The position numbers and the translations under genes were made by a program. The notes under the pieces were generated by a model. That model was not told where the DNA came from. It worked only from the letters and a program-made list of their open reading frames with translations, and made no database searches. Positions 2,647 to 37,668 of a DNA stretch of 64,000 nucleotides are shown piece after piece (position 1 is the first letter of the stretch; each line of letters begins with the position of its first letter). The stretch is from Escherichia coli (GTDB lineage: Bacteria > Pseudomonadota > Gammaproteobacteria > Enterobacterales > Enterobacteriaceae): the NCBI RefSeq assembly GCF_050320075.1, contig NZ_CP190018.1; one strand, 5' to 3'.

Positions 2647-4040
2647 CGCAATTTATCTCCTATTAAAAATTCCAGCGCAGCATCAAGGCGAATATGCGGC
2701 AGCGGTTTGTCGACATCCATCACCTGCGGACGAAACGCCTCAAACTGGAAGCCTTGCTTATCCCAGAACGCCTGACCAGGCAAACGTGCGGGAACTTCGC
2801 CAGGATAAACAGTGAGCGGTGCGCCATCACTGAGTCGATTACCGCGCAGCGCCGGGATTTTCTCACCGTTAACATCAATAATGCCGCTGGTGGTCGCCTG
2901 AACTGACGCCAGCCCCAGGCAGTCCATGCTGATCCCTTCGAACGCCGCATTTTGCCAGGCATCCTGAATTAGTTGTTGCAGTAATGAAACCATATTGGCG
3001 TGCTGATCGATGGTCACATGGTCTGCTTTAGTCGCAGCAAACAATAGCTTATCGATAACCGGCGAAAACAAACGCCGGAACAGGGTTCGCTGCCCGTAGT
3101 GGAAACTTTGCATCAGCTGCGTCAGCGCCAGACGCATATCATTAAATGCCTGTGGCCCACTGTTGAGAGGCTGCAGGCAATCCACCAGCACAATCTGGCG
3201 GTCAAAGCGCAGAAAATGATTCTTATAGAACCCCTTCACCACCTTCTCGCAATAATAATTAAAGCGCTCGCGCAGCATTCCGGCATTGGTATGCTTATCG
3301 GCCTGCGCCAGTTTGGACTCGCCCCAGGCATCGACATCCGGCCACGGGAAGAATTGCAGCGCGGGTGCTCCTGCCATATCTCCCGGCAAGACAAAGCGCC
3401 CAGGCTGAATAAAGTGCAACCCCTGCTGTTTGCAGTGGTGGAGATACTCGGTCCAGGCGGCGGCAATGTCTGCCAGCCGGTTTTCGTCGGCAGGCGCTAG
3501 CGGGTCCAGCCCTTCGCACATCATTCGCCATTTCGCCGACCATTCGCCGCGCTGACCATTGAGTAAGCCCGTCATCTGGCGCGACCAGCTTAAATAGTCC
3601 TGCGCCAGCATCGGCAGGTCGAGCAACCATTCGCCGGGGTAATCCACAATTTCCAGATACAGCGTGGAGGTGTCCTTAAAGTGGCGTAGCAGCGAATCGT
3701 TCGATTTAAAACGTAACGCCAGGCGAATTTCACTGACGCCGCGCGTAGGCGTCGGCCAGGCGGGAGGATCGCCATATAACTGCGCCAACCCTTCATCATA
3801 GGTGAAGCGCGGAATGCCAAAGTCACGCTGGGGAATGCGTTTTACGCCCAGCAGGCGCTCTTCACGCACCGCACTTAAAAGCGGCAAACGTGCTCCGGCA
3901 TGAATATTGAGCAACTGATTAACCATCGCGGTGATAAACGCTGTTTTGCCGCTGCGGCTAAGTCCGGTTACAGCGAGGCGCAGATGTCTGTCGACACCCC
4001 GATTCACCAGCGCATTAAGTTCATTTTTAAGTCGCTTCAT
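2643..4040 (-). CDS. ycjX: P-loop NTPase YcjX (DUF463)
   Basis: 465-aa ORF; Walker A motif GLSRSGKT near the N-terminus; synteny with ycjF. Confidence 0.9.
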
Positions 4041-21402: not shown

Positions 21403-22209
21403 ATGATCGAAACGCTGCTTGAAGTGCGTAATTTAAGTAAAACGTTCCGCTACCGGACCGGTTGGTTTCGTCGTCAGACCGTAGAAGCGGTAAAACCCTT
21501 GAGCTTTACGCTACGTGAAGGCCAGACACTGGCGATTATTGGCGAGAATGGTTCGGGTAAATCCACGCTGGCAAAAATGCTGGCGGGAATGATAGAACCT
21601 ACCAGCGGCGAGTTATTGATTGACGATCATCCGCTGCATTTTGGCGATTATTCCTTCCGCAGTCAGCGTATTCGCATGATTTTTCAGGATCCTTCGACCT
21701 CGTTGAATCCCCGTCAACGTATCTCGCAAATCCTGGATTTTCCACTGCGTCTGAACACCGACCTGGAACCGGAACAGCGTCGCAAACAGATTATTGAAAC
21801 GATGCGTATGGTTGGGCTGCTACCGGATCACGTCAGTTACTATCCGCATATGTTGGCACCCGGGCAAAAACAGCGTCTGGGGCTGGCGCGCGCGCTGATA
21901 TTGCGCCCAAAAGTCATTATTGCCGATGAAGCCCTCGCCTCACTGGATATGTCGATGCGTTCGCAGTTGATTAATCTGATGCTTGAGTTACAGGAAAAAC
22001 AGGGCATTTCGTATATTTATGTTACCCAGCATATCGGAATGATGAAGCACATTAGCGACCAGGTGCTGGTGATGCATCAGGGCGAGGTTGTCGAGCGAGG
22101 CAGCACCGCCGATGTGCTGGCATCGCCGCTGCATGAACTCACCAAACGGCTGATCGCCGGTCATTTTGGCGAGGCATTGACGGCGGATGCGTGGCGTAAG
22201 GACCGTTAG
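21403..22209 (+). CDS. sapF: ABC transporter ATP-binding protein SapF
   Basis: 268 aa, Walker A GENGSGKST. Confidence 0.9.
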   Translation: MIETLLEVRNLSKTFRYRTGWFRRQTVEAVKPLSFTLREGQTLAIIGENGSGKSTLAKMLAGMIEPTSGELLIDDHPLHFGDYSFRSQRIRMIFQDPSTSLNPRQRISQILDFPLRLNTDLEPEQRRKQIIETMRMVGLLPDHVSYYPHMLAPGQKQRLGLARALILRPKVIIADEALASLDMSMRSQLINLMLELQEKQGISYIYVTQHIGMMKHISDQVLVMHQGEVVERGSTADVLASPLHELTKRLIAGHFGEALTADAWRKDR

Positions 22210-22216
22210 TGTTCTG

Positions 22217-22253
22217 CACCTCATCCTGACAGGGCCCCCCTCAGGATGAGGTG
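22217..22253. terminator. Bidirectional intrinsic terminator shared by sapF and the convergent MFS gene
   Basis: Perfect 13-bp inverted repeat cacctcatcctga / tcaggatgaggtg around an 11-nt GC-rich loop, lying exactly between the two convergent stop codons. Confidence 0.6.
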
Positions 22254-22257
22254 TTCA

Positions 22258-23421
22258 TTACTTTTGATTGTCGATTCTGGTGAGAGCAACCAGCAATGCC
22301 AGCGTATAACACACCGTAATTGCCAGACTCATTTTTAACAGTGTTTCTCCGCCAAACCCCGACAATGGCGCGGCTATACCGCCGAAGACAAACATGCTCA
22401 TCCCCATCAACGCAGACGCCGTTCCAGATTCCTGCGTCCCTACTCCACTCATAGCCTCTGCCCCGCCAACAGTGCCGATGCCGCTACAAAATGCAATAGT
22501 GAAAAATAATGCCACCAGTGCCGGAATGGGCAATTGTGTCCATGCGCATAAGACCGTGAGCAATGCACACAAAATTGCCGCTATCAGGCCACCTCGCAAC
22601 AATGTCATCGCGTTAATCCGTCGCGCCAGGCGCGAGAAGATCCATGAAGCAATGATAAGTCCGATGCCGTTAAGGCCAAACACCAGGCTAAATTGCATTG
22701 GACTAAAGCCAAATTCCTTCTGCAACACGAACGACGAAGAGCCGATATATGCAAACAAACCGGCCAGCATAAAACTTTGAATCAGGCAAAAGCGCATAAA
22801 ACGGCGGTTCTGCACCACGCTTCGTCCGGTTAATAGCAATGATGAGCCCCTTTTATTTTCTGGCAAGGTCTCATTAATAAATAACAGGCAGCCCAGCAAC
22901 AGTACGGTGCTAATTTCAGCCATTACCCAGAATAAAGTGCGCCAGTCAAAAGTGCTGACAATGTACCCGCCCAGCACTGGCGACAACACCGGTGCCAGGC
23001 CATTCACCGTCATTAACAGCGCAAAAAACTGGGTCAACGTTACTCCCTGATATTTGTCACGAGCAATAGAACGAGAGAGCACCGAACCACCCGCCCCCGC
23101 GATCCCTTGAATAAAACGCCAGACCACCAGCCAGTAAATATTGTTCGTTGTCGCGCACAAAATGGAAGAAACAATAAACAATAGCAACGACAAGATTAAC
23201 GGACGTTTACGCCCTATTTTGTCGCTCAGAGGGCCAAATAACAGTTGTCCGACGCCAAGACCGATCAGCGATGCGGTCAGGGTTAATTGCGTTATGGTCG
23301 TGGTTGCCGCCAGTTGCTCAGACATCTCCGGCAAAGCCGGCAAATAAAGATCGGTACACATCGGGCCGATACCGGCTAAAAGACCAAGAATCAATGCCCA
23401 TGAAAGAGAGACTCTAGCCAT
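22258..23421 (-). CDS. MFS drug:H+ antiporter, Bcr/CflA (DHA1) family
   Basis: 387-aa, ~12-TM hydrophobic ORF; N-terminal motif region (…DLYLPALP…; …GPLSDKIGRKRP…) resembles E. coli Bcr as I recall it; begins 8 nt after the OMF stop. Not part of the K-12 sapF–fabI interval as I remember it. Confidence 0.75.
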   Translation of the reverse strand: MARVSLSWALILGLLAGIGPMCTDLYLPALPEMSEQLAATTTITQLTLTASLIGLGVGQLLFGPLSDKIGRKRPLILSLLLFIVSSILCATTNNIYWLVVWRFIQGIAGAGGSVLSRSIARDKYQGVTLTQFFALLMTVNGLAPVLSPVLGGYIVSTFDWRTLFWVMAEISTVLLLGCLLFINETLPENKRGSSLLLTGRSVVQNRRFMRFCLIQSFMLAGLFAYIGSSSFVLQKEFGFSPMQFSLVFGLNGIGLIIASWIFSRLARRINAMTLLRGGLIAAILCALLTVLCAWTQLPIPALVALFFTIAFCSGIGTVGGAEAMSGVGTQESGTASALMGMSMFVFGGIAAPLSGFGGETLLKMSLAITVCYTLALLVALTRIDNQK

Positions 23422-23429
23422 ATTATTCC

Positions 23430-24803
23430 TTACTTGAGTGATGACATGCCGCCGCCCAGCGACTGCCAGAGCGTGATTCGGTTTGTAAAATCAGTCAGTT
23501 GTAGTGCCAGCAGCGCCTGCTGTGCGCTCCACAAGCTGCGCTGCGCCGTCAACACGGTCAGGTAATCACCAACACCCGCCTGATAGCGACGCAAGCCAAC
23601 ATCGACCGTTTGTTGCTCAGCTTTAACATACTGGCGCTGTGCATCCAGTTGCTCTTCAAGCGTGGTCCGCCGCGCCAGTGCGTTAGCGACATCTTTAAAT
23701 GCGCTCTGAACGGTTTTTTCATAGGTGGCAATGAGTCCACGCTTTTGTGCTTCTGCGTAACGAAGCTGCGCCAGATTACTTCCGCCAGTGAACAGCGGTA
23801 ATGTGACCGATGGCGTAAATGACCAGATCTGCATTCCGTGGCTGAACAACGACGACAATGCTTCACTGCCAACACCAGCGCTGGCAGTCAGCGAAATCGT
23901 CGGAAAAAAGTTAGCCCGCGCCGCGCCAATATCGGCATTGGCGCTCTTCAAATTATGTTCCGCTTCCTGGATATCCGGGCGACGCAGCAGAACGTCAGAT
24001 GACACTCCCGCAGGAACCAGACTTATCATCTGTTCCGGCAGGCTTTCCAGTGTTCCCGGTAGCAAATTTTCCTCAAGCGTTGTACCTGCCAGTAAGTTCA
24101 GCGCATTTTTATCCTGCATCACGTGTGTCTGATAGCTGGCAACGCTGGCGCGCGCTTGCTGATAAACACTCATCGCCTCACTGACATCTGTCGCTGCCGC
24201 CGTGCCAACCTGTTGCTGGCGCTGGATAATTTTCAATGAGTTTTCTGCACTGGCCATCGTTTCTTTTGCCAGGGCCAGGTTGCTGTTATCAGCCGCCAGT
24301 GTCAGCCAGGCGGTGCTGATTTCAGCAATCAGCGTTAAACGAGTGTTCTGGGCTGTAAATTCACTGGCAAGCCAGGTTTCCCGCGCCGCCCGAGATAAAC
24401 TCTGATTACGACCAAACAGATCTAACGTAAAACTGGACACCGTGCCGTCAGCCTCGGCAGTGGTTTCCGTACCATTCGCCAGCGAACGACTGCGGGTTGA
24501 ACTTAAGGCCGCATTCACCGTCGGGAATAACGACGCATTAGTTTGCCCATAGAGCGCCCGTGCTGAGTCAATATCAGCAATCGCTTTTTGCACATCGCGG
24601 TTACTGTTCAGTGCAATAGTCACCACCTGCTGCAATCGGGGATCGTGGATCACCTGCTGCCAGTCATGGCTGATTGCCTTTCCCTGGCCCTGTGCTCCCG
24701 GCAAGGTCGCCGGGATTGGGGATTCAGGCGTGCTGTAGTGGGGCTCGAGCGAGACACATCCCGCACTCAACAGCACCAGAAAAATAAGAGAACGACGCAA
24801 CAT
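23430..24803 (-). CDS. Outer-membrane efflux lipoprotein, OprM/NodT (TolC-superfamily) type
   Basis: 457 aa; lipoprotein signal with lipobox (MLRRSLIFLVLLSAGC); length and composition typical of OprM-type outer-membrane factors; begins 3 nt after the RND stop. Confidence 0.8.
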   Translation of the reverse strand: MLRRSLIFLVLLSAGCVSLEPHYSTPESPIPATLPGAQGQGKAISHDWQQVIHDPRLQQVVTIALNSNRDVQKAIADIDSARALYGQTNASLFPTVNAALSSTRSRSLANGTETTAEADGTVSSFTLDLFGRNQSLSRAARETWLASEFTAQNTRLTLIAEISTAWLTLAADNSNLALAKETMASAENSLKIIQRQQQVGTAAATDVSEAMSVYQQARASVASYQTHVMQDKNALNLLAGTTLEENLLPGTLESLPEQMISLVPAGVSSDVLLRRPDIQEAEHNLKSANADIGAARANFFPTISLTASAGVGSEALSSLFSHGMQIWSFTPSVTLPLFTGGSNLAQLRYAEAQKRGLIATYEKTVQSAFKDVANALARRTTLEEQLDAQRQYVKAEQQTVDVGLRRYQAGVGDYLTVLTAQRSLWSAQQALLALQLTDFTNRITLWQSLGGGMSSLK

Positions 24804-24806
24804 AAC

Positions 24807-27800
24807 TTACTCCTGACGGCGCGGTTTACCGGCAAACAAACGTTTCACCAGTACAAAAAACAGAGGAACAAAGAAAATAGCCAGCAACGTAGCGGTCAGC
24901 GTACCGCCAATAATGCCCGTACCAATGGCGATGCGGCTGTTCGCCCCTGCGCCGGTTGCTATCGCCAGCGGCATTACCCCCGCAATAAACGCCAGCGAGG
25001 TCATGATGATTGGGCGTAAACGAGTCTGCGCCGCGCGTAATGCCGCACGACTCAAGGAATAGCCCTCTGCAACCGCCGCTTCAGCAAATTCCACAATCAG
25101 AATGGCGTTTTTCGACGACAAGCCGATAGTGGTTAATAGCGCCACCTGGAAGTAAACATCGTTGTTTAAATCACGCATCCAGGCCGCCAGCGCCGCGCCA
25201 AGAAGCCCCAGAGGGATCACCAGAATGACCGAGAACGGGACTGACCAGCTTTCGTACAGTGCTGCAAGGCAGAGGAAAACCACCAGAATAGAAACTGCAT
25301 ACAGACTCAATGCCTGACCGCTGGCCAGTTTCTCCTGCAATGACAAACCACTCCAGGCCCAGGTTGTTCCCGCAGGAAGACTGTTTGCCAGTTCCTCCAT
25401 TTTTGTCATTGCATCGCCGGAACTAAAGCCAGTCGCATTTTCCCCCTGAATTTCATAGGCTGCAGAACCGTTGTAGCGCACCAGTCTTTCCGGTCCATAC
25501 AGCCAGCGGGTGGTTGCAAAAGCAGAGAATGGTGTCATGGCGTTATCGCTACCGCGCACAAACCATTTACCTAAGTCTGACGGCGTGGAACGAAATTCAC
25601 TGTCGCCCTGAATGTAGACTTTTTTCACACGACCACGGTCAATAAAGTCATTCACATAAGTACCGCCCCACGCACTGGACAGGGTGTCGGTGACATCATT
25701 CAAACTCAACCCTAATGACACCGCTTTATTACTATCAATATCTACCTGCAATTGCGGCATTTGTGGCAAATCATTGGCACGCACAGAATGTAACTCCGGA
25801 CTTTGATTCGCTTTTTCTATCAACTGATTACGCATTTGCAGTAGTGTTTCGCGATCGGTTCCACCGTTAGCTAACAATTCAAACGTAAAACCATTGCTTT
25901 GCCCCAGCCCATCAACGGCTGGCGGCGTCATCGCAAATACCGTGGCATCACGAATTGTGCCCAGCTCTTTGGTTGCCCGTAGGGCGATAGCCTGGGCGGT
26001 GTTTTCTGCCCCTTTACGTTGAGACCAGTTTTTCAACGAAACAAACGCCATCCCGGTGTTCTGTCCGCTGCCGCTAAAACTGAAACCATCAACGGTAAAA
26101 ATGACATCGGTATTTGCTTTCTCATTAATCAGGAACCAGTCAACAATCTGGCGATTCACTTCTGCTGTACGGGCAGCGGTCGCCCCGGCCGGCAGCGTGT
26201 ACTGCACCATGATTTCGCCCTGGTCTTCAGTGGGTAAGAAACTGCCCGGCAGTTTCCACATCATCAGGGCCATTCCACCACCCAGTACGACATAAAGCCC
26301 CATCGTTCGAGCAGCACGGCGCAGGACATAAATTACGCCTCGCTGATATTTATCTTCAGTACGGCGGTAAAAGCGGTTAAATGCGCCGAAAAAGCCTTTT
26401 TTATGTGGCGGAACATGCTGGAGGACGGAACCGCACAGGGCGGGAGTCAAGGTCAATGCCACTACCACGGAAAGCAGCATTGCGGAGATAATGGTTATCG
26501 AAAACTGACGATAAATTACCCCCGTAGATCCCCCAAAGAAGGCCATAGGCAGGAATACGGCTGACAACACCAGCGCAATGGCAACCAGTGCGCCAGAAAT
26601 CTCGCCCATTGATTTTTCCGTGGCTTCACGCGCGGGCAACCCTTCGTCACGCATAATACGTTCGACGTTCTCCACCACCACAATGGCATCGTCCACCAGC
26701 AAGCCGATCGCCAGCACCATTGCAAACAACGTCAGGGTATTAATCGAATAGCCAAACAACGCAAGAACGCCGAATGTGCCCAGCAAAACGACGGGGACAG
26801 CTAACGCCGGAATCAGTGTGGCACGCAGGTTTTGCAGGAATAAATACATCACGCAAACCACCAATACGATGGCTTCAAACAGCGTCTGAATTACGTCCTC
26901 TACAGAGATTTTAATAAATTCAGTGCTGTCTTTCGGGTATGCGATGTCGTATCCCTGCGGCATGTTCCGCTGGAATTCGGCAATCTTATCCTTGACCAGC
27001 GTCGCCGTATTCAGCGCATTCGCACCGGGCGAAAGCATTACAGCAACCCCGGCAGACGGGTGACCGTTAAGTTTGCCGATAGCGGTATAATCTTCACTGC
27101 CCATCTCAACGCGAGCCACATCTTTTATACGAACAACTGCGCCGTCTGACTGGCTTTTCACGATAATATTTTTGAACTGATCCACCGTCTGCAAGCGAGA
27201 CTGCGCACGTACCGTTGCGGTCAGTTGCTGAGTATTCGGTGAAGGCAATGCCCCTATTTTCCCGGCAGTAACCTGCACGTTTTGCGCTTCAATAGCACTT
27301 TGCACGTCTGAAGGCATTAGCGAGTAAGACGCCAGTTTGGCCGGGTCAAGCCAGATGCGCATAGCGTATTCCGCGCCAAAGACTTGCAGACTCCCCACAC
27401 CTTCAACACGCGCCAGCGGATCCTGAACGTTACTAACCAACCAGTCGGCGATATCCGAACTGGAGGCTTTGTCAGTGGTGTCATACACGGCAGCAATCAG
27501 CAAAAAGTTGCTTTGTGATTTCTCCACCGTAACACCCGTTTGCTGCACTTCGCTGGGTAGACGCGACTCCGCCTGCTGAATTTTATTCTGCACCTGAACC
27601 TGTGCAGTATCTGGATCGGTACCTTGTTCAAAGGTCACATTAATACTGACCGAACCATCAGAGCTGCTGGTTGAGCTGAAATAGAGTAAATTATCAAGCC
27701 CAGTGAGTTGTTGCTCGATAACCTGAGTCACGCTGTTCTCCAGCGTTTCGGCAGAAGCACCAGTATAAGTGGCTGAAATTTTAATGGTCGGTGGCGCAAC

Positions 27801-27914
27801 GTCAGGATATTGCGCGACGGGCAATGTGCGAATAGCCAGAATCCCCGCCAACATAATCAAAATGGCGATAACCCAGGCAAAGACCGGGCGGCGAACAAAA
27901 AAGCGCGAAAACAT
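24807..27914 (-). CDS. RND multidrug efflux permease, HAE1 family (AcrB/MexB-like paralog)
   Basis: 1035 aa; long blocks recognisably similar to AcrB (e.g. AVPVVLLGTFGVLALFGYSINTLT…LLVDDAIVVVENVERIM…; …LYESWSVPFSVILVIPLGLLGAALAA…); start overlaps the MFP stop by 1 nt. Confidence 0.9.
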   Translation of the reverse strand: MFSRFFVRRPVFAWVIAILIMLAGILAIRTLPVAQYPDVAPPTIKISATYTGASAETLENSVTQVIEQQLTGLDNLLYFSSTSSSDGSVSINVTFEQGTDPDTAQVQVQNKIQQAESRLPSEVQQTGVTVEKSQSNFLLIAAVYDTTDKASSSDIADWLVSNVQDPLARVEGVGSLQVFGAEYAMRIWLDPAKLASYSLMPSDVQSAIEAQNVQVTAGKIGALPSPNTQQLTATVRAQSRLQTVDQFKNIIVKSQSDGAVVRIKDVARVEMGSEDYTAIGKLNGHPSAGVAVMLSPGANALNTATLVKDKIAEFQRNMPQGYDIAYPKDSTEFIKISVEDVIQTLFEAIVLVVCVMYLFLQNLRATLIPALAVPVVLLGTFGVLALFGYSINTLTLFAMVLAIGLLVDDAIVVVENVERIMRDEGLPAREATEKSMGEISGALVAIALVLSAVFLPMAFFGGSTGVIYRQFSITIISAMLLSVVVALTLTPALCGSVLQHVPPHKKGFFGAFNRFYRRTEDKYQRGVIYVLRRAARTMGLYVVLGGGMALMMWKLPGSFLPTEDQGEIMVQYTLPAGATAARTAEVNRQIVDWFLINEKANTDVIFTVDGFSFSGSGQNTGMAFVSLKNWSQRKGAENTAQAIALRATKELGTIRDATVFAMTPPAVDGLGQSNGFTFELLANGGTDRETLLQMRNQLIEKANQSPELHSVRANDLPQMPQLQVDIDSNKAVSLGLSLNDVTDTLSSAWGGTYVNDFIDRGRVKKVYIQGDSEFRSTPSDLGKWFVRGSDNAMTPFSAFATTRWLYGPERLVRYNGSAAYEIQGENATGFSSGDAMTKMEELANSLPAGTTWAWSGLSLQEKLASGQALSLYAVSILVVFLCLAALYESWSVPFSVILVIPLGLLGAALAAWMRDLNNDVYFQVALLTTIGLSSKNAILIVEFAEAAVAEGYSLSRAALRAAQTRLRPIIMTSLAFIAGVMPLAIATGAGANSRIAIGTGIIGGTLTATLLAIFFVPLFFVLVKRLFAGKPRRQE

Positions 27915-29035
27915 CAGGCGTTGCCTCCATTAGCCTGAACTTCAACAGCCTTGACGGTCTGCCCTGAAGTGACTTTGGCAGAACCTTCAACAATCAGTCG
28001 GTCGCCGTTGTGCAGGCCGTTCAGCACCAGCCATTTATCACCATACGTTTCTCCCGTTTCGAGCGTTCGCTGCTCTACTTTATTGTCTTTATTCACCACC
28101 AGCGCAGTTGCATTGCCTTTAGCATCGCGCGTGACGCCCTGTTGCGGCGCGAGAATAGCGTCTTCCATCACGCCTTCATCGACACGAGCGCGAACAAACA
28201 TTCCCGGTAATAACTGCTGTTGTGGATTGGGGAAAATCGCCCGTAATGTCACCGAACCGGTAGACTCATCTACAGCGACTTCGGTGAGTTCCAGACGCCC
28301 TTTTTCGCTGTAGGTTGTGCCATCTTCCAGAATAAGTGAGACGCTCATGGTGTCACTGTTGGTCGCCAGTGACTGTTTACGCAGACGTAATAAATCGACA
28401 CTGGAGCGAGTGAGGTCGACATACATTGTATCCAGACCACGAACAGTCGTTAACGCTGTATCTTGCGACGCGGTCACCAGTGCGCCAGGGGTTACCGACG
28501 AAATGCCAATGCGCCCTGAAATCGGTGCGGTTACCGTGGTCCAGTCAAGATTAATGCGCGCAGTTTCCAGTGCGGCTTTTTTCGCCTCTACACTGGCTTT
28601 ATCTTGTGCACAGGTAGACTGAGCATCATCAGCATCCTGTTGTGAAACACCGTTCTCTTTCACCAGTCGGGCATAACGCTGCGCTTTCTGGCAATCGGCT
28701 TTTACCAGTGCCTGTGCTTGTTGTAATGCTGCCCGAGCTTCATTCCATGCAGCCTGATAACTGGCCGCATCAATCTGGTAGAGCGGCTGTCCAGCCTTGA
28801 CCAGATCACCTTCCTTAAATAAGCGTTTCTGGATAATTCCCCCAACCTGCGGACGTACTTCAGCACTGAGCGCAGCACTGGTGCGTCCGGTTAATTCACT
28901 GACTACCGAAACCGGTTGAGATTTGACTGTAACAACGCCGACTTCTGTTTCTGACGGGGATGAATTGTTACTTTGCGTATTATCACAACCCGATAAGAGC
29001 AGCATTGCCACTACAGATGTTGCTATATACTTCAT
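27914..29035 (-). CDS. Periplasmic adaptor (membrane-fusion protein) of the RND pump, AcrA/MexA-like lipoprotein
   Basis: Track ORF extends to 29068; the in-frame ATG at 29035 gives MKYIATSVVAMLLLSGCDN… (lipoprotein signal) with ggag 7–10 nt upstream. Confidence 0.8.
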   Translation of the reverse strand: MKYIATSVVAMLLLSGCDNTQSNNSSPSETEVGVVTVKSQPVSVVSELTGRTSAALSAEVRPQVGGIIQKRLFKEGDLVKAGQPLYQIDAASYQAAWNEARAALQQAQALVKADCQKAQRYARLVKENGVSQQDADDAQSTCAQDKASVEAKKAALETARINLDWTTVTAPISGRIGISSVTPGALVTASQDTALTTVRGLDTMYVDLTRSSVDLLRLRKQSLATNSDTMSVSLILEDGTTYSEKGRLELTEVAVDESTGSVTLRAIFPNPQQQLLPGMFVRARVDEGVMEDAILAPQQGVTRDAKGNATALVVNKDNKVEQRTLETGETYGDKWLVLNGLHNGDRLIVEGSAKVTSGQTVKAVEVQANGGNA

Positions 29036-29183
29036 TATTTTCTCCAGGGTGAGAAATACCCTCCTCATTAAAATTAATGAGGATATGTCAGGGATATTCA
29101 GTTATAACGAACCCGCATCGCGAAATGAATTTCGCAATGAAATAAGGGGGATTAATATCCCCCGCTATTGGTTAATTCTGTTC

Positions 29184-29750
29184 TTATTTATTTATCAACA
29201 TACTAACAATATCCTGATATATTTCCTGCAGATGTTGTGGATCGCTTTTTTGCGGTGTTAAACGACGATAAACCGTACCTTCCATCATGGTAGCAAACAC
29301 TTCAACGCAGCAACGAATGTGCTCGTCGCTAAGATGGGGATGCATTCTTTTCATATGTGCACAACCGTTAGCGAACATTCTGGCGTCAGCTTCTTCAAGC
29401 ATTGCCATAACCCGCGGGTTGCGTGTGGCTTCTGCAGCCACTTCCAGCATCAGCGCGTCGTCGTCCTCATTTAAGGATTTACGCAAGGCAAGGACTTCCG
29501 GGAAGTGATCGGTACGCGCGTCAATGTCCATTTGGGCAATACGAAAGTCGATGATACGGCGAACCATCTCTTCAATAATGGCATCTTTGTTGGCGAAGTA
29601 ACGATATATCTGACCCACGCTAAGCTGAGCTTCGCTGGCAATTTGCGACATACTGGCGGCATGAAACCCGCAGCGACGAAAACACCGACGGGCGGCGTTA
29701 ATGATTTCATCCTGACGCTGTTTGTGGCGTATCTCCAGTTTGCTGGTCAT
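29184..29750 (-). CDS. TetR/AcrR-family transcriptional regulator
   Basis: Track ORF extends to 29849; the in-frame ATG at 29750 (MTSKLEIRHKQRQDEIINAARRCFRRCGFHAASMSQIASEAQLSVGQIYRYFANKDAI…) places the TetR HTH signature near the N-terminus, ~188 aa. Start choice is an inference. Confidence 0.7.
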   Translation of the reverse strand: MTSKLEIRHKQRQDEIINAARRCFRRCGFHAASMSQIASEAQLSVGQIYRYFANKDAIIEEMVRRIIDFRIAQMDIDARTDHFPEVLALRKSLNEDDDALMLEVAAEATRNPRVMAMLEEADARMFANGCAHMKRMHPHLSDEHIRCCVEVFATMMEGTVYRRLTPQKSDPQHLQEIYQDIVSMLINK

Positions 29751-30227
29751 TTCTGTCTCCTGGCCTATCACTTGGTGAGAATGATCGTTCTCATTTTTGC
29801 TGATTATACGTTTCTCCAAAGTAATGGAAAGTATTTTTATCTTATTCATGGTGCATATTCTGATAATGAAGAGATTGTGGAGATTCTGTGAAGATAGTTG
29901 ACAATATTAAGTTGGGGTCAATTCATCAGAAAGGCTGCTACTTGTTGTCGCCAGTTCTGTTTTCATCATCAAACTTATCGGAGCTAATACGAATAGTTTC
30001 AGAGTCAGATTCTATAAGATATTCCCCCAACCTACCCCTTGCAGGCGTCAAGAGTAGATAACGCAAAATGCTCTGTACCTCAGCTTCTCTCCGGTACAGA
30101 AAGCGCAACTATAGCCACCCACAGCCAGGTTGATTATAATAACCGTTTATCTGTTCGTACTGTTTACTAAAACGACGAATCGCCTGATTTTCAGGCACAA
30201 CAAGCATCAACAATAAGGATTAAAGCT

Positions 30228-31016
30228 ATGGGTTTTCTTTCCGGTAAGCGCATTCTGGTAACCGGTGTTGCCAGCAAACTGTCCATCGCCTACGGTATCG
30301 CTCAGGCGATGCACCGCGAAGGAGCTGAACTGGCATTCACCTACCAGAACGACAAACTGAAAGGCCGCGTAGAAGAATTTGCCGCTCAATTGGGTTCTGA
30401 CATCGTTCTGCAGTGCGATGTTGCAGAAGATGCCAGCATCGACACCATGTTCGCTGAACTGGCGAAAGTTTGGCCGAAATTTGACGGTTTCGTACACTCT
30501 ATTGGTTTTGCACCTGGCGATCAACTGGATGGTGACTATGTTAATGCCGTTACCCGTGAAGGCTTCAAAATTGCCCACGACATCAGCTCCTACAGCTTCG
30601 TTGCAATGGCAAAAGCTTGCCGCTCCATGCTGAATCCGGGTTCTGCCCTGCTGACCCTTTCCTACCTTGGCGCTGAGCGCGCTATCCCGAACTACAACGT
30701 TATGGGTCTGGCAAAAGCGTCTCTGGAAGCAAACGTGCGCTATATGGCGAACGCGATGGGTCCGGAAGGTGTGCGTGTTAACGCCATCTCTGCGGGTCCG
30801 ATCCGTACTCTGGCGGCTTCCGGTATCAAAGACTTCCGCAAAATGCTGGCTCATTGCGAAGCCGTTACCCCGATTCGCCGTACCGTTACCATTGAAGATG
30901 TGGGTAACTCTGCGGCATTCCTGTGCTCCGATCTCTCTGCCGGTATCTCCGGTGAAGTGGTCCACGTTGACGGCGGTTTCAGCATCGCTGCAATGAACGA
31001 ACTCGAACTGAAATAA
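30228..31016 (+). CDS. fabI: Enoyl-[acyl-carrier-protein] reductase (NADH), FabI
   Basis: 262 aa, [51 protein letters not shown]…; SDR fold. Confidence 0.95.
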
Positions 31017-31159
31017 TCGTTCTGTTGGTCAAGACGGGCGGCGTTCTGCCGCCCGTTATCTCTGTTATACCTTTCTGATATTTGTTATCGCCGATCCGTC
31101 TTTCTCCCCTTCCCGCCTTGCGTCAGGATAACGATTTCCTTTACGACCAAGGAGCGCCC

Positions 31160-32287
31160 ATGGAACAACGCCACATCACCGGCAAAAGCCACTGGTATCA
31201 TGAAACGCAATCCAGTACTGCGGAATATGACGTTCTGCCTCTGGTCCCGGAAGCCGCAAAGGTCAGCGATCCCTTTCTGCTCGACGTGATCCTTGATGAA
31301 GAAACGCTGGCCCCCTTCCTTTCATGGCTGGTCCCTGCGCGCGTTCTTGCAGTGGAGTTGTTCCCTGACCCGCTTACCGTGACCCGTTCACAGACCTTCA
31401 CCGCTTATGAACGCTTGTCGACGGCCCTGACGGTTGCTCAGGTTTGCGGCGTCCAACGGTTATGTAACTACTATTCGGCGCGACTTACGCCGCTCCCCGG
31501 GCCTGATTCCTCCAGGGAAAGTAATCATCGGTTGGCACAAATCACGCAATATGCCCGCCAACTGGCTAGCTCGCCTTCTATTATCGACAACCGATCGCGC
31601 CAGCATCTGAATGACGTCGGTCTTACTGTCTGGGACTGTGTGATCATTAATCAAATCATTGGTTTTATTGGCTTTCAGGCGCGGACCATTGCGACATTTC
31701 AGGCTTATCTCGGGCATCCGGTACGCTGGTTACCCGGTCTGGAGATACAAAACTATGCCGACGCGTCACTGTTTGCTGATGAATCAATACGCTGGCGAAG
31801 CAGCTATGAGGTGGAAAAACTACCTGAAGAGTACACAAAAAGTTCAACTACAGAACTTTGCCAACTGGCCGAAACACTCTCTCTCCACCCTATTTCACTT
31901 TCCCTTCTCGAAAAGTTGTTAAACAGCACACGGGTTAATACACAGCCGGATAATCAGCTTGCGGCGTTGATATGCGCGCGGATAAATGGCAGTCCTGCTT
32001 GTTTTGCCGCCTGTATGGATTCATCAAATGAATATAAAAAAATCAGCCCCCTTCTGCGCAAGGGCGAAAATGAAATTAACCAATGGGCTGACCGTCATTC
32101 TGTTGAGCGCGCTACCGTTCAGGCGATACAATGGCTGACCCGAGCACCCGATCGCTTTAGCGCCGCCCAGTTCAGCCCTTTACTCGAACACGAAAAATCA
32201 TCAACGCAGATTATTAATCTGCTGGTATGGAGCGGGCTGTGTGGCTGGATAAATCGCTTAGAAATCGCGTTGGGTGAGACATATTAA
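31160..32287 (+). CDS. yciW: Putative peroxidase-related/oxidoreductase YciW
   Basis: In-frame ATG at 31160 preceded by aaggag gives 375 aa as in K-12 YciW; synteny between fabI and rnb. Confidence 0.8.
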
Positions 32288-32354
32288 CCTTGCCGCGTCA
32301 GACAGATTCGCGTAAAACTGTCAGCCGCTCTAATGGCCACCAAAATAGACAATT

Positions 32355-34289
32355 ATGTTTCAGGACAACCCGCTGCTAGCGCAGCTTAAACAGCAACTGC
32401 ATTCCCAGACGCCACGCGCTGAAGGGGTGGTAAAAGCCACAGAAAAAGGCTTTGGCTTCCTGGAAGTCGACGCGCAAAAAAGTTATTTCATTCCGCCGCC
32501 GCAGATGAAAAAAGTCATGCATGGCGACCGAATTATCGCGGTTATCCACAGTGAAAAAGAACGTGAATCCGCAGAGCCAGAAGAACTGGTTGAACCGTTC
32601 CTGACTCGTTTCGTGGGTAAAGTTCAGGGCAAAAATGACCGTCTGGCCATCGTTCCTGATCATCCACTCTTAAAAGACGCCATTCCTTGCCGCGCAGCCC
32701 GTGGCCTGAACCACGAGTTTAAAGAAGGCGACTGGGCAGTTGCCGAAATGCGCCGCCATCCGCTGAAAGGCGATCGTTCTTTCTATGCTGAACTGACACA
32801 ATACATCACTTTTGGTGACGACCACTTTGTACCGTGGTGGGTTACCCTTGCGCGCCATAATCTGGAAAAAGAAGCACCAGACGGCGTCGCTACCGAAATG
32901 CTCGATGAAGGTCTGGTTCGTGAAGATCTGACCGCGCTGGATTTTGTCACCATCGACAGTGCCAGCACAGAAGATATGGATGACGCCCTTTTCGCTAAGG
33001 CGTTGCCGGATGGCAAACTTCAGCTGATTGTGGCGATTGCCGATCCAACCGCGTGGATTGCTGAAGGCAGCAAGCTGGACAAAGCCGCGAAAATTCGCGC
33101 ATTCACCAACTATCTGCCTGGCTTCAACATCCCTATGCTGCCTCGCGAGCTTTCTGACGATCTCTGCTCACTGCGCGCCAATGAAGTCCGCCCGGTACTG
33201 GCATGCCGCATGACGCTCTCCGCTGATGGCACCATTGAAGATAATATCGAATTCTTTGCTGCCACCATCGAATCCAAAGCGAAGCTGGTGTATGACCTGG
33301 TTTCTGACTGGCTGGAAAATACCGGTGACTGGAAGCCTGAAAGTGAAGCAATTGCCGAACAAGTCCGTTTGTTAGCGCAAATTTGCCAACGCCGCGGCGA
33401 GTGGCGTCATAACCACGCACTGGTATTTAAAGATCGCCCGGATTACCGCTTTATTCTCGGTGAAAAAGGTGAAGTGCTGGATATCGTCGCCGAGCCTCGT
33501 CGCATTGCCAATCGTATCGTCGAAGAAGCGATGATTGCCGCTAACATTTGTGCGGCCCGCGTACTGCGCGATAAGCTCGGTTTTGGCATCTATAACGTGC
33601 ATATGGGCTTTGATCCGGCGAATGCCGACGCGCTGGCAGCGTTGCTGAAAACCCACGGTCTGCATATCGATGCCGAAGAAGTGCTCACGCTGGACGGTTT
33701 CTGCAAACTGCGTCGTGAACTGGATGCGCAACCAACTGGTTTCCTCGACAGCCGCATTCGTCGCTTCCAGTCATTTGCTGAAATTAGCACTGAACCCGGT
33801 CCTCACTTTGGCCTCGGTCTGGAGGCATACGCCACCTGGACTTCGCCGATCCGTAAATATGGCGACATGATCAACCACCGTCTGCTGAAAGCGGTTATCA
33901 AAGGCGAAACTGCGACGCGTCCGCAGGATGAAATCACTGTCCAAATGGCCGAGCGTCGCCGTCTCAACCGAATGGCAGAACGTGATGTTGGCGACTGGTT
34001 ATACGCACGCTTCCTGAAAGACAAAGCCGGGTCCGACACCCGTTTCGCGGCGGAAATTGTCGATATCAGCCGTGGCGGCATGCGTGTGCGTTTGGTTGAT
34101 AACGGCGCTATTGCCTTTATTCCGGCACCTTTCTTACACGCTGTGCGCGATGAACTGGTTTGCAGCCAGGAAAACGGCACTGTACAAATTAAAGGTGAAA
34201 CGGCTTACAAAGTGACTGACGTTATTGACGTCACCATTGCCGAAGTCCGCATGGAAACCCGCAGCATTATTGCGCGCCCGGTCGCGTAA
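32355..34289 (+). CDS. rnb: Exoribonuclease II (RNase II)
   Basis: 644 aa, [39 protein letters not shown]…; RNB catalytic domain plus S1 domain. Confidence 0.95.
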
Positions 34290-34523
34290 TCTCCTTTCAC
34301 GGCCCATTCCTCATGAATGGGCCGTTTATTTCCCCGCTCCACCTTCGTCATATCCCGGCAGATTTTTAACTGACTTTCGTTTGAAAACTGGCGTTTTTCC
34401 AAAACTGGATTACAAATAAATATATAAAAAAAACAATGCGTTTAGCCGCCGTTAATTTCATGTAAGTCATGTTGTTCCTTTTATTTAACCGCGGACTCCG
34501 CTGTTAACCGGAGGATATGCATC

Positions 34524-36509
34524 ATGAAAACCGTTAGGGAGTCCACAACGTTGTACAACTTTCTCGGATCGCACAATCCATACTGGCGGTTAACGGAAAG
34601 CAGCGATGTTTTGCGCTTTTCTACCACCGAAACCACAGAACCTGAACGTACGTTGCAGTTATCTGCCGAACAGGCTGCTCGCATCAGGGAAATGACAGTC
34701 ATCACTTCCAGTCTGATGATGAGTCTGACCGTCGATGAAAGCGATCTTTCTGTGCATCTGGTAGGACGAAAAATCAATAAACGGGAATGGGCTGGCAACG
34801 CGTCGGCATGGCATGACACACCGGCGGTTGCTCGTGATTTATCACACGGGCTTTCCTTTGCTGAGCAGGTAGTTTCTGAAGCACATTCCGCAATAGTGAT
34901 TCTCGACAGTCGGGGGAATATCCAGCGCTTCAATCGGTTATGTGAAGATTACACAGGGTTGAAAGAACACGACGTCATTGGGCAAAGCGTGTTTAAACTG
35001 TTTATGAGCCGTCGTGAAGCTGCGGCATCCAGGCGCAATAACCGTGTATTTTTTCGAAGCGGCAATGCATATGAAGTCGAACTGTGGATACCAACACGTA
35101 AAGGCCAGCGGCTGTTTCTGTTTCGCAATAAATTTGTCCACAGCGGCAGTGGCAAAAACGAGATTTTTTTAATCTGTTCCGGCACCGACATTACCGAAGA
35201 GCGCCGCGCTCAGGAGCGACTGCGCATTCTGGCAAATACCGACAGTATCACCGGACTGCCGAATCGTAACGCAATGCAGGAGTTAATCGATCACGCTATT
35301 AATCAGGCAGATAACAATAAAGTTGGGGTTGTGTATCTTGATTTGGATAATTTTAAAAAGGTCAACGACGCCTATGGGCATTTGTTTGGTGACCAGCTAT
35401 TACGCGACGTGTCATTGGCCATTTTAAGCTGTCTGGAGCATGACCAGGTTTTGGCGCGTCCAGGTGGCGATGAGTTTCTGGTACTGGCATCCAATACCTC
35501 ACAAAGCGCGCTGGAAGCAATGGCATCACGAATTTTGACTCGCTTACGACTCCCCTTCCGCATTGGTTTAATTGAAGTTTATACCAGCTGTTCAGTGGGT
35601 ATTTCACTCTCTCCCGAACATGGTTCGGACAGCGCGGCTATTATTCGTCACGCCGACACAGCAATGTACACAGCGAAGGAAGGCGGACGAGGACAATTTT
35701 GCGTTTTTACTCCAGAAATGAATCAGCGGGTATTTGAATATCTCTGGCTGGATACCAACTTGCGTAAAGCACTGGAAAACGATCAGTTGGTTATTCACTA
35801 TCAACCGAAAATCACCTGGCGTGGCGAAGTGCGCAGTCTGGAAGCTCTAGTACGTTGGCAGTCAACTGAACGTGGGTTGATTCCACCGTTGGACTTCATT
35901 TCCTACGCCGAAGAGTCAGGGCTCATTGTGCCTTTAGGCCGTTGGGTGATTCTCGATGTCGTACGCCAGGTGGCAAAGTGGCGGGATAAAGGTATTAACC
36001 TGCGAGTGGCGGTAAACATTTCTGCACGTCAGCTCGCCGATCAAACCATTTTCACCGCCCTGAAACAGGTTCTCCAGGAACTCAATTTTGAATACTGCCC
36101 TATTGATGTTGAACTGACGGAGAGCTGCCTGATTGAGAATGATGAACTGGCACTTTCTGTTATTCAACAATTTAGCCAACTAGGTGCGCAAGTGCATCTG
36201 GACGATTTTGGTACCGGCTACTCTTCACTTTCGCAACTGGCGCGCTTTCCGATCGATGCGATTAAACTTGACCAGGTTTTTGTTCGAGATATTCACAAAC
36301 AACCTGTATCGCAGTCGCTAGTCCGGACGATCGTCGCTGTGGCCCAGGCATTGAATCTTCAGGTGATCGCTGAAGGTGTGGAGAGTAAAAAGGAAGATGC
36401 TTTTTTAACCAAGAACGGGATCAATGAGCGGCAAGGATTTTTGTTTGCCAAACCGATGCCCGCCGTCGCCTTCGAACGTTGGTATAAACGCTATCTGAAG
36501 CGCGCATAA
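34524..36509 (+). CDS. pdeR: Cyclic-di-GMP phosphodiesterase PdeR (YciR/Gmr), PAS–GGDEF–EAL
   Basis: 661 aa; GGDEF-type region (…RPGGDEFLVL…) and EAL domain; synteny after rnb. Confidence 0.9.
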   Translation: MKTVRESTTLYNFLGSHNPYWRLTESSDVLRFSTTETTEPERTLQLSAEQAARIREMTVITSSLMMSLTVDESDLSVHLVGRKINKREWAGNASAWHDTPAVARDLSHGLSFAEQVVSEAHSAIVILDSRGNIQRFNRLCEDYTGLKEHDVIGQSVFKLFMSRREAAASRRNNRVFFRSGNAYEVELWIPTRKGQRLFLFRNKFVHSGSGKNEIFLICSGTDITEERRAQERLRILANTDSITGLPNRNAMQELIDHAINQADNNKVGVVYLDLDNFKKVNDAYGHLFGDQLLRDVSLAILSCLEHDQVLARPGGDEFLVLASNTSQSALEAMASRILTRLRLPFRIGLIEVYTSCSVGISLSPEHGSDSAAIIRHADTAMYTAKEGGRGQFCVFTPEMNQRVFEYLWLDTNLRKALENDQLVIHYQPKITWRGEVRSLEALVRWQSTERGLIPPLDFISYAEESGLIVPLGRWVILDVVRQVAKWRDKGINLRVAVNISARQLADQTIFTALKQVLQELNFEYCPIDVELTESCLIENDELALSVIQQFSQLGAQVHLDDFGTGYSSLSQLARFPIDAIKLDQVFVRDIHKQPVSQSLVRTIVAVAQALNLQVIAEGVESKKEDAFLTKNGINERQGFLFAKPMPAVAFERWYKRYLKRA

Positions 36510-36655
36510 GTAGATGAATATATATACTTAGCGATATATTCCGTCATTATATATCGTATTACTGGATGATAATTAGCCGTTGCTGTTAAACACTTCTCTT
36601 TTAGCGGCAATTTTTGCATTATTCCTTTTCCACTTTTGCTATAAGGATGTCCTTG

Positions 36656-36829
36656 ATGTCTGAATTTGATGCCCAGCGCGTTGCCGAACGTATTGATATT
36701 GTGTTAGATATCCTTGTGGCAGGCGATTACCACTCTGCGATCCATAATCTCGAGATACTTAAAGCAGAACTCTTGCGCCAGGTTGCTGAATCTACGCCAG
36801 ACATCCCGAAGGCACCGTGGGAGATTTAA
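36656..36829 (+). CDS. yciZ: UPF0509 small protein YciZ
   Basis: In-frame ATG at 36656 gives the 57-aa [40 protein letters not shown]… product. Confidence 0.8.
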
Positions 36830-36918
36830 CAATCGTGCCTTCAGGTTTTCCTATTTGAGGATGCCCGGCGCGTCAGTATTTTTTTATTTAGTATTATAAC
36901 GTTATAAGAATTACAGCG

Positions 36919-37668
36919 ATGAATTCCCGACAACAAACAATTCTACAGATGGTCATTGACCAGGGTCAGGTTAGCGTAACCGATCTGGCAAAAGCCACTG
37001 GAGTTTCTGAAGTTACCATTCGCCAGGATCTCAACACCCTCGAAAAACTGAGTTACCTCCGCCGTGCACATGGCTTTGCAGTATCGCTTGATAGTGATGA
37101 CGTCGAAACTCGTATGATGAGCAACTATACGCTGAAGCGTGAACTCGCCGAGTTTGCCGCGTCACTGGTTCAACCGGGCGAAACCATCTTTATCGAAAAT
37201 GGCAGCAGCAATGCCCTGCTCGCCCGGACTCTGGGCGAGCAGAAGAAAAATGTCACTATCATCACGGTCAGCAGCTACATCGCGCATTTGCTGAAAGACG
37301 CGCCTTGTGAAGTTATTTTGCTCGGTGGCGTGTACCAGAAAAATAGCGAAAGTATGGTTGGTCCTTTGACACGCCAGTGCATCCAACAGGTGCATTTCAG
37401 CAAAGCATTTATTGGTATTGATGGCTGGCAACCTGAAACTGGGTTTACCGGTCGCGATATGATGCGTACCGATGTGGTCAATGCCGTGCTGGAAAAAGAG
37501 TGCGAAGCGATAGTCCTGACTGACAGCTCGAAATTTGGTGCTGTACATTCATACTCCATCGGCCCCGTTGAGCGATTCAATCGCGTGATTACCGATTCGA
37601 AAATACGCGCCAGCGATCTGATGCATCTTGAGCACAGTAAACTCACCGTTCACGTCGTTGACATTTAA
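36919..37668 (+). CDS. yciT: DeoR-family transcriptional regulator YciT
   Basis: 249 aa; N-terminal DeoR-type HTH ([31 protein letters not shown]) and sugar-binding-type C-terminal domain. Confidence 0.9.

Follow-up and report, generated by a model that had tools for sequence, protein, structure and literature searches.

Within the window, the whole 64-kb stretch of E. coli DNA that we analysed, the start codon of a TetR-family gene on the minus strand ends at position 29750 and the ATG of fabI on the plus strand begins at 30228, leaving a single divergent gap of 477 bp (29751-30227). fabI itself (30228-31016; enoyl-ACP reductase, assigned from its ORF, RefSeq and NCBIfam) is followed by yciW, rnb and pdeR on the plus strand. 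The TetR-family gene belongs to a group of five co-directional minus-strand genes, the other four of which were assigned from the RefSeq annotation of an identical haplotype, NCBIfam matches and published names: eefD (MFS; 22258-23421), eefC (OMF; 23430-24803), eefB (RND permease; 24807-27914) and eefA (periplasmic adaptor, MFP; 27914-29035). The fifth, eefR (29184-29750), encodes a TetR-family autorepressor of 188 aa, as indicated by RefSeq, NCBIfam and residue numbering. A longer eefR ORF of 221 aa was rejected as an over-extension, because with the 188-aa RefSeq start Val45 and Arg50 fall at the positions where PMC12482432 numbers them. The eef genes have a GC content of about 52%, typical of E. 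coli, and sapF ends at 22209, before the eef segment.

Relative to a K-12-type strain, 658 bp comprising ycjD and the 244 bp 3' of it are exchanged for 7888 bp (22217-30104) that hold the five eef genes, and homology resumes at 30105, 123 bp before the fabI ATG. The first-pass annotation had reported a divergent fabI/TetR pair with 477 bp between the genes and had found ycjD missing; its coordinates proved exact, both genes flanking the one gap, and tblastn with K-12 YcjD against the whole window returned nothing better than E = 5. Searches by blastn (word size 7) for eef remnants in K-12 and for ycjD remnants in the window gave chance matches only (E >= 0.5), with the exception of the hairpin arms after sapF and the 123-bp block before fabI. 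At that word size the ycjD segment (L002, our K-12 locus, 3343-4000) and the eef segment also showed no significant similarity to each other; the conserved eef-operon fragments drawn for eef-negative strains in Fig. 3 of PMC12817139 may be an effect of forced global alignment. The left edge of the eef segment is a hairpin at 22217-22253 (CACCTCATCCTGA / TCAGGATGAGGTG) between the convergent stop codons of sapF (22207-22209) and eefD (22258-22260), probably a bidirectional terminator for the two genes. Its arms (CACCTCAT(C/T)CTGA) are common to both haplotypes and its loops differ (L002 3363-3405 in the K-12 arrangement); in K-12 the hairpin stands just before ycjD, the GTG start of which lies within the 3' arm.

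The arrangement as such is already known. A TetR-family gene, an RND adaptor, an RND permease, an outer-membrane factor and an MFS gene between sapF and fabI constitute eefRABCD, and its adjacency to fabI, its replacement by ycjD and the EefR operator have all been published. PMC12817139 (Microb Genom 2026) places eefRABCD always between fabI and sapF, conserved in phylogroups B2, D, E, F and G, with ycjD in its place in A, B1 and C, and already remarks on how near the eefR and fabI promoters are to each other. PMC12482432 (Virulence 2025) established by EMSA, GFP reporter and qRT-PCR that EefR is a repressor both of its own promoter and of eefABCD, which are co-transcribed with eefR. Compared with eefRABCD of ATCC 35218 and ATCC 25922, described in these two papers, the window agrees in gene order, in location between sapF and fabI, in operator sequence and position, in EefR residue numbering and in having ycjD as the K-12-type alternative; we found no difference of substance. 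The locus also resembles eefABC of K. aerogenes and K. pneumoniae, a homologous tripartite RND pump that is cryptic under laboratory conditions. It differs from the K. aerogenes operon, which PMC12817139 describes as H-NS-silenced and without eefR, in that it carries eefR.

We next asked how widespread the two arrangements are. Of 5426 complete E. coli genomes, 2034 carry the full 477 bp, O157:H7 Xuzhou21 and UTI isolates among them, and at least 2826 a K-12-type junction, while the last 123 bp (30105-30227) occur in 5420. The eef arrangement is thus a common haplotype, carried by about a third of E. coli, and not the oddity of a single strain. By megablast, about 560 of the 5420 genomes gave no match either to the full 477 bp of the eef type or to the 88-bp junction of the K-12 type; these may be ST69/ST182-type variants, may carry IS insertions, or may simply have no exact word of 28 bp. 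The eef arrangement is also found in E. albertii and another divergent Escherichia lineage (L004, L005), and the ycjD arrangement in E. ruysiae, so both states are old, and the suggestion in the first-pass annotation that fabI is "now" paired with a TetR gene is misleading. In most other Enterobacterales sampled, fabI directly follows sapF across a gap of 130-200 bp; both Escherichia states are therefore insertions relative to that order. Across Enterobacteriaceae, DNA seems to have inserted repeatedly between sapF and fabI.

We then aligned the intergenic region of E. coli with those of E. albertii and a third Escherichia lineage and, separately, compared seven E. coli haplotypes with one another. 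The roughly 170 bp nearest eefR (29751-29920) are conserved in all three lineages and have a GC content of 35%, against 51% for the whole window, within a region that is AT-rich throughout (35-43%). A consensus scan predicts an eefR promoter there on the minus strand (29803-29830), with a -35 element TTTCCA (29830-29825), a 16-nt spacer and a -10 element TATAAT (29808-29803). Just 3' of it, spanning about +4 to +21 of the predicted transcript, which is the usual place for a transcription-blocking repressor, lies the EefR operator, an 18-bp palindrome at 29776-29793 that reads TGAGAATGATCGTTCTCA on the plus strand and TGAGAACGATCATTCTCA on the minus strand. It is the one palindrome that EefR binds in PMC12482432, validated there by EMSA, and its only exact match in the window; in that paper a 316-bp fragment upstream of eefR drives EefR-repressible GFP. 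The operator arms are invariant in the seven E. coli haplotypes and the two other Escherichia lineages, and the operator spacer carries in the window, as in the published sequence, the G variant, other eef-positive strains having A. The consensus scan also picked out a second promoter-like element in the conserved block on the minus strand (29863-29892; TTCACA-18-CATTAT).

Upstream of the eefR promoter, in the conserved block, a 15-nt direct repeat (ATGGTGCATATTCTG / ATTGTGGAGATTCTG) at 29848-29862 and 29874-29888, 26 bp apart, could bind a second regulator of eef. A one-mismatch copy of the operator (TGAGAAATACCCTCCTCA) lies at 29050-29067, at the 5' end of eefA and within the 148-bp eefR-eefA gap, where chance alone would give about 0.3 matches of this kind across the window. 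In PMC12482432 a 148-bp fragment taken from downstream of eefR served as non-specific competitor DNA and did not compete; if that fragment is the eefR-eefA gap, the copy is probably not bound.

The next 180 bp or so (29921-30098) form a central spacer with indels between the species and little identity. It also has the highest SNP density within E. coli, accounting for 12 of the 17 variable columns among the seven haplotypes. No spacer indels occur among those seven, so some constraint on length within the species is possible. Three small ORFs in the gap (57, 56 and 43 aa) were rejected as genes because the spacer in which they lie has indels between species. We likewise set aside an inverted repeat, CTGTACC...GGTACAG (30074-30100): five of the seven E. 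coli haplotypes have a SNP in its right arm, and E. albertii has not retained it.

From about 30099 to the fabI ATG the sequence is nearly invariant across the aligned Escherichia. The predicted fabI promoter (30112-30140, plus strand; 10 of 12 consensus positions in the scan) has a -35 element TAGCCA (30112-30117), a 17-nt spacer and a -10 element TATAAT (30135-30140), invariant across Escherichia except for -35 SNPs in K-12, and is followed by a predicted 5'UTR of 87 nt. The block shared by the two haplotypes (30105-30227), which contains this core promoter and the 5'UTR, is 98% identical to K-12, and from GCAACTATAG onward the sequence is identical in all four haplotype representatives. Between the haplotype junction (30104/30105) and the fabI -35 hexamer downstream of it there are 7 bp, and therefore all DNA upstream of the -35 differs between the haplotypes.

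Taken together, the anatomy suggests that the interval represents the region between eefR and fabI in the eefRABCD haplotype and is built of three independent modules. The first would be the block beside eefR, with the eefR promoter or promoters and a single operator just 3' of the -10, where bound EefR blocks transcription of eefR and the co-transcribed eefABCD, a step demonstrated experimentally in PMC12482432. The second would be the central spacer, which shows no detectable constraint, and the third the 123 bp holding the fabI core promoter and 5'UTR, which eef-positive and eef-negative strains have in common. On this account one and the same core promoter would drive fabI in the two haplotypes, and EefR would have no site at which to act there; what the haplotype would change for fabI is the DNA upstream of the -35, with a FadR-type box in the ycjD form and none in the eef form. 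We consider it likely that the modules are arranged in this way and that the fabI core promoter, the same in both haplotypes, lies outside the reach of EefR.

If anything sets fabI of eef-positive strains apart, FadR is a better candidate than EefR. In K-12, a FadR-type box (CTCCGGTCGGACCTGGC; core GGTCNGACC) abuts the shared block 5 bp upstream of the fabI -35, and the K-12 counterpart of window 30070-30130 contains CTGCTCCGGTCGGACCTGGCAACTATAGC. Given the junction 7 bp upstream of the -35, this box belongs to the ycjD haplotype (A/B1/C and E. ruysiae), and in E. ruysiae it is identical although the sequence just upstream has diverged. The corresponding position in the window (30089-30106, plus strand) reads CTCCGGTACAGAAAGCGC, with the right half-site gone; most eef-positive strains read CTCCGCTACAG, and eef-type strains and E. 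albertii together read CTCC(G/T/C)(G/C)TAC(A/T)GAAAG. We scored these sequences with a matrix of nine 17-mers from upstream of K-12 fabA, fabB, fadB, fadI, fadL, fadD and fadE, picked by similarity to a remembered consensus (leave-one-out range 5.8-17.2 bits) and presumably in agreement with published FadR sites. The K-12 box scored 8.1 bits, a modest value of which about 0.2 matches are expected by chance in the K-12 spacer, and window 30000-30148 held no match of 4.7 bits or more. The ycjD haplotype thus resembles the FadR-activated promoters of fabA, fabB, fabHDG and K-12 fabI in having a FadR-type box beside the -35; unlike them, the eef haplotype of the window has no 17-bp box (core TGGTCNGACC) at or overlapping the fabI -35. 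Many other Enterobacterales carry a FadR-type box, GTGGTCGGATTAAC, 18 nt upstream of the fabI -10, and FadR control of fabI therefore looks ancient, but the K-12 box stands about 10 bp further from the -10 than in those genera. The reported effect of FadR on fab genes is, moreover, modest.

The passages of PMC8115981 and PMC6339880 that cite My et al. 2015 (J Bacteriol 197:1862) state that FadR activates fabI in K-12 and that RegulonDB lists a FadR site in its promoter, to which CTCCGGTCGGACCTGGC is a candidate match; on the same citation, K-12 fabI is reported to show FadR-dependent transcription responsive to long-chain acyl-CoA. PMC8115981 assigns the first base of that site to 1,345,411, where it gives a G>A change, but CP009273 (BW25113) has T there, on the genome strand 7 bp from the first G of the box. 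In BW25113 1,345,409-1,345,434 (L100 1010-1035) the nearest G residues are at 1,345,409, 415 and 418, the last of which begins GCCAGGTCCGACCGGAG, and the published coordinate is probably a slip. Literature searches with the box sequence returned nothing relevant, and a search for a fadR-mutant transcriptome in an eef-positive strain found none. Two overlapping FadR-like matches of about 9 bits do occur in the window, at 29972-29998. We rejected them as functional sites: they lie 115-140 bp upstream of the -35 in the variable spacer, do not occur in E. albertii or the third lineage, and carry a core SNP in two E. coli haplotypes.

On balance we find it possible, at somewhat less than an even chance, that fabI of eef-positive strains, lacking the K-12 FadR box, is uncoupled from direct control by FadR and long-chain acyl-CoA. 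In line with this, we hypothesize that, in the eef/ycjD polymorphism, the DNA upstream of the fabI -35 is exchanged and a probable FadR box with it, and this is the sole new lead to emerge from the interval. Only tentatively would we extend it to say that the box is missing from the eef haplotype at large, that is from B2/D/E/F/G, including O157 and UPEC, and from E. albertii. The same caution applies to the broader proposal that an old polymorphism also determines how an essential gene is controlled from upstream and places fabI of roughly a third of E. coli outside direct FadR/acyl-CoA control, which we regard as plausible and short of probable.

Beyond the two recent eef papers, the adjacency of eefR and fabI itself adds nothing. 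The practical consequence concerns K-12 maps of the fabI promoter (the FadR site and any upstream promoters in the ycjD-fabI spacer), which are not transferable to B2/D/E/F/G, the groups that include most extraintestinal pathogens and O157, because eef strains have different DNA upstream of the -35. If FadR activation is indeed missing there, the FabI level in those lineages would answer host fatty acids differently, and they might also differ in how susceptible they are at baseline to triclosan and other FabI inhibitors. In the K-12 ycjD-fabI spacer (L002 3757-4000) the 3' end of ycjD is partly duplicated (GGAGACGGTGCTGGAGAATATTC...), and a GC-rich repeat (CCCCTCTGGGGAGAGGGTTAGGGTGAGGGG) is also present; the E. 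ruysiae spacer (L097 2864-3127) has the GC-rich repeat and lacks the duplicate. Shimada et al. (PMC3946193) reported a constitutive fabI promoter, GTGAAA-17-GAGAAT, placed inside this duplicate, DNA that eef-positive strains do not have.

An indirect coupling of the two promoters appears unlikely. Here strong divergent transcription of the derepressed membrane-protein operon, or spreading of H-NS, would act on the fabI promoter by altering its supercoiling or its occupancy. Local supercoiling can respond to divergent transcription where the genes encode membrane proteins, the predicted eefR and fabI starts, near 29796 on the minus strand and 30147 on the plus strand, are divergent and 351 bp apart, and eef transcription rises 27- to 83-fold upon loss of EefR (PMC12482432). 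The AT-richness of the eefR-proximal block, together with the H-NS silencing of eefABC in K. aerogenes, means that H-NS spreading as a filament could in principle extend as far as the fabI promoter. Against this, the authors of PMC12817139 call silencing unlikely, fabI being essential, and the identity of the fabI core promoter in eef-negative strains suggests no special adaptation to such a neighbour.

Far less probable still is direct cross-talk, as proposed in the first-pass annotation, in which bound EefR would repress or activate fabI and inducers of efflux would thereby shift the FabI level and triclosan tolerance. eefR and fabI are adjacent and divergent, and EefR resembles the repressors of tetR-tetA and acrR-acrAB, systems in which a TetR-family autorepressor has a palindromic operator near its own promoter, the divergent neighbour is the target, and one intergenic operator, overlapping both promoters, governs both directions. 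Here, unlike in those systems, the target operon eefABCD is co-directional and co-transcribed with eefR, and the divergent fabI promoter lies some 280 bp off (281 bp from -35 to -35) without an operator. The sole operator, downstream of the eefR promoter, is centred 327 bp from the predicted fabI -35; no second operator-like sequence with three or fewer mismatches is present in 29794-30227, and the spacer between the promoter blocks is unconserved. In PMC12482432 single-base changes to the palindrome abolish binding (EMSA, point mutants), a genome-wide MAST scan yielded no further EefR site, and the available part of its account of the eefR-deletion RNA-seq (274 changed genes) does not mention fabI. 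With no EefR site at the fabI promoter, a target that is not the divergent gene and the same core promoter and 5'UTR in strains with and without eef, direct cross-talk is therefore very unlikely, judged from the anatomy. Of the original interpretation, the divergent pair, the single gap and the loss of ycjD stand; an effect of EefR on fabI, and the link to biocide tolerance drawn from it, find no support in the anatomy, and neither eef paper (PMC12482432, PMC12817139) contains triclosan assays. The eefR and fabI promoters look independent, in an arrangement that is real but ordinary.

Further observations concern fabI promoters and leaders in other genera. In Citrobacter, Enterobacter and Cedecea (L006, L008, L011, L013, L014, L021, L024, L033) we found a third type of fabI promoter, CGTGACAC...GTGGGATATAAT. 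It accompanies sapF-fabI inserts of 1-2 kb in Citrobacter and Enterobacter (L006, L008, L013, L014) and occurs without such an insert in L021; in L011, L024 and L033 sapF was not found upstream. Several of these loci share a CTGGTTGGATGAGG motif about 230-270 bp upstream.

The fabI 5'UTR in the window (30147-30227) contains a hairpin, GCCTGA-TTT-TCAGGC (30182-30196, plus strand), followed by a CA-rich tract and the Shine-Dalgarno sequence, and a counterpart is present in other Enterobacterales. An Rfam scan of 22000-37000 (E up to 1) gave no match in the interval, this hairpin included, and RNAalifold on the fabI 5'UTRs returned no structure, MAFFT having left the variable stems unaligned; the hairpins come from single-sequence folds (L015, L016, L018, L019, L023, L026, L027, L029, L030, L032, L035, L037, L049, L050, L058, L064 and L078). 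Their distance from the predicted 5' end is about 10-13 nt, and in the other genera they are found about 70-90 nt before fabI; their stems vary by genus and always pair: CGGCAG/CTGCCG, CGCTCG/CGAGCG, GCGGTTGC/GCAGCCGC, CGGTCGC/GCGACCG and CGATCATC/GATGATCG. Each is followed by a conserved unpaired CAACAACAATGA tract and AAGGATTA..GCTATG. One possibility is a stem-loop that stabilises the 5' end, another a regulatory element not yet described.
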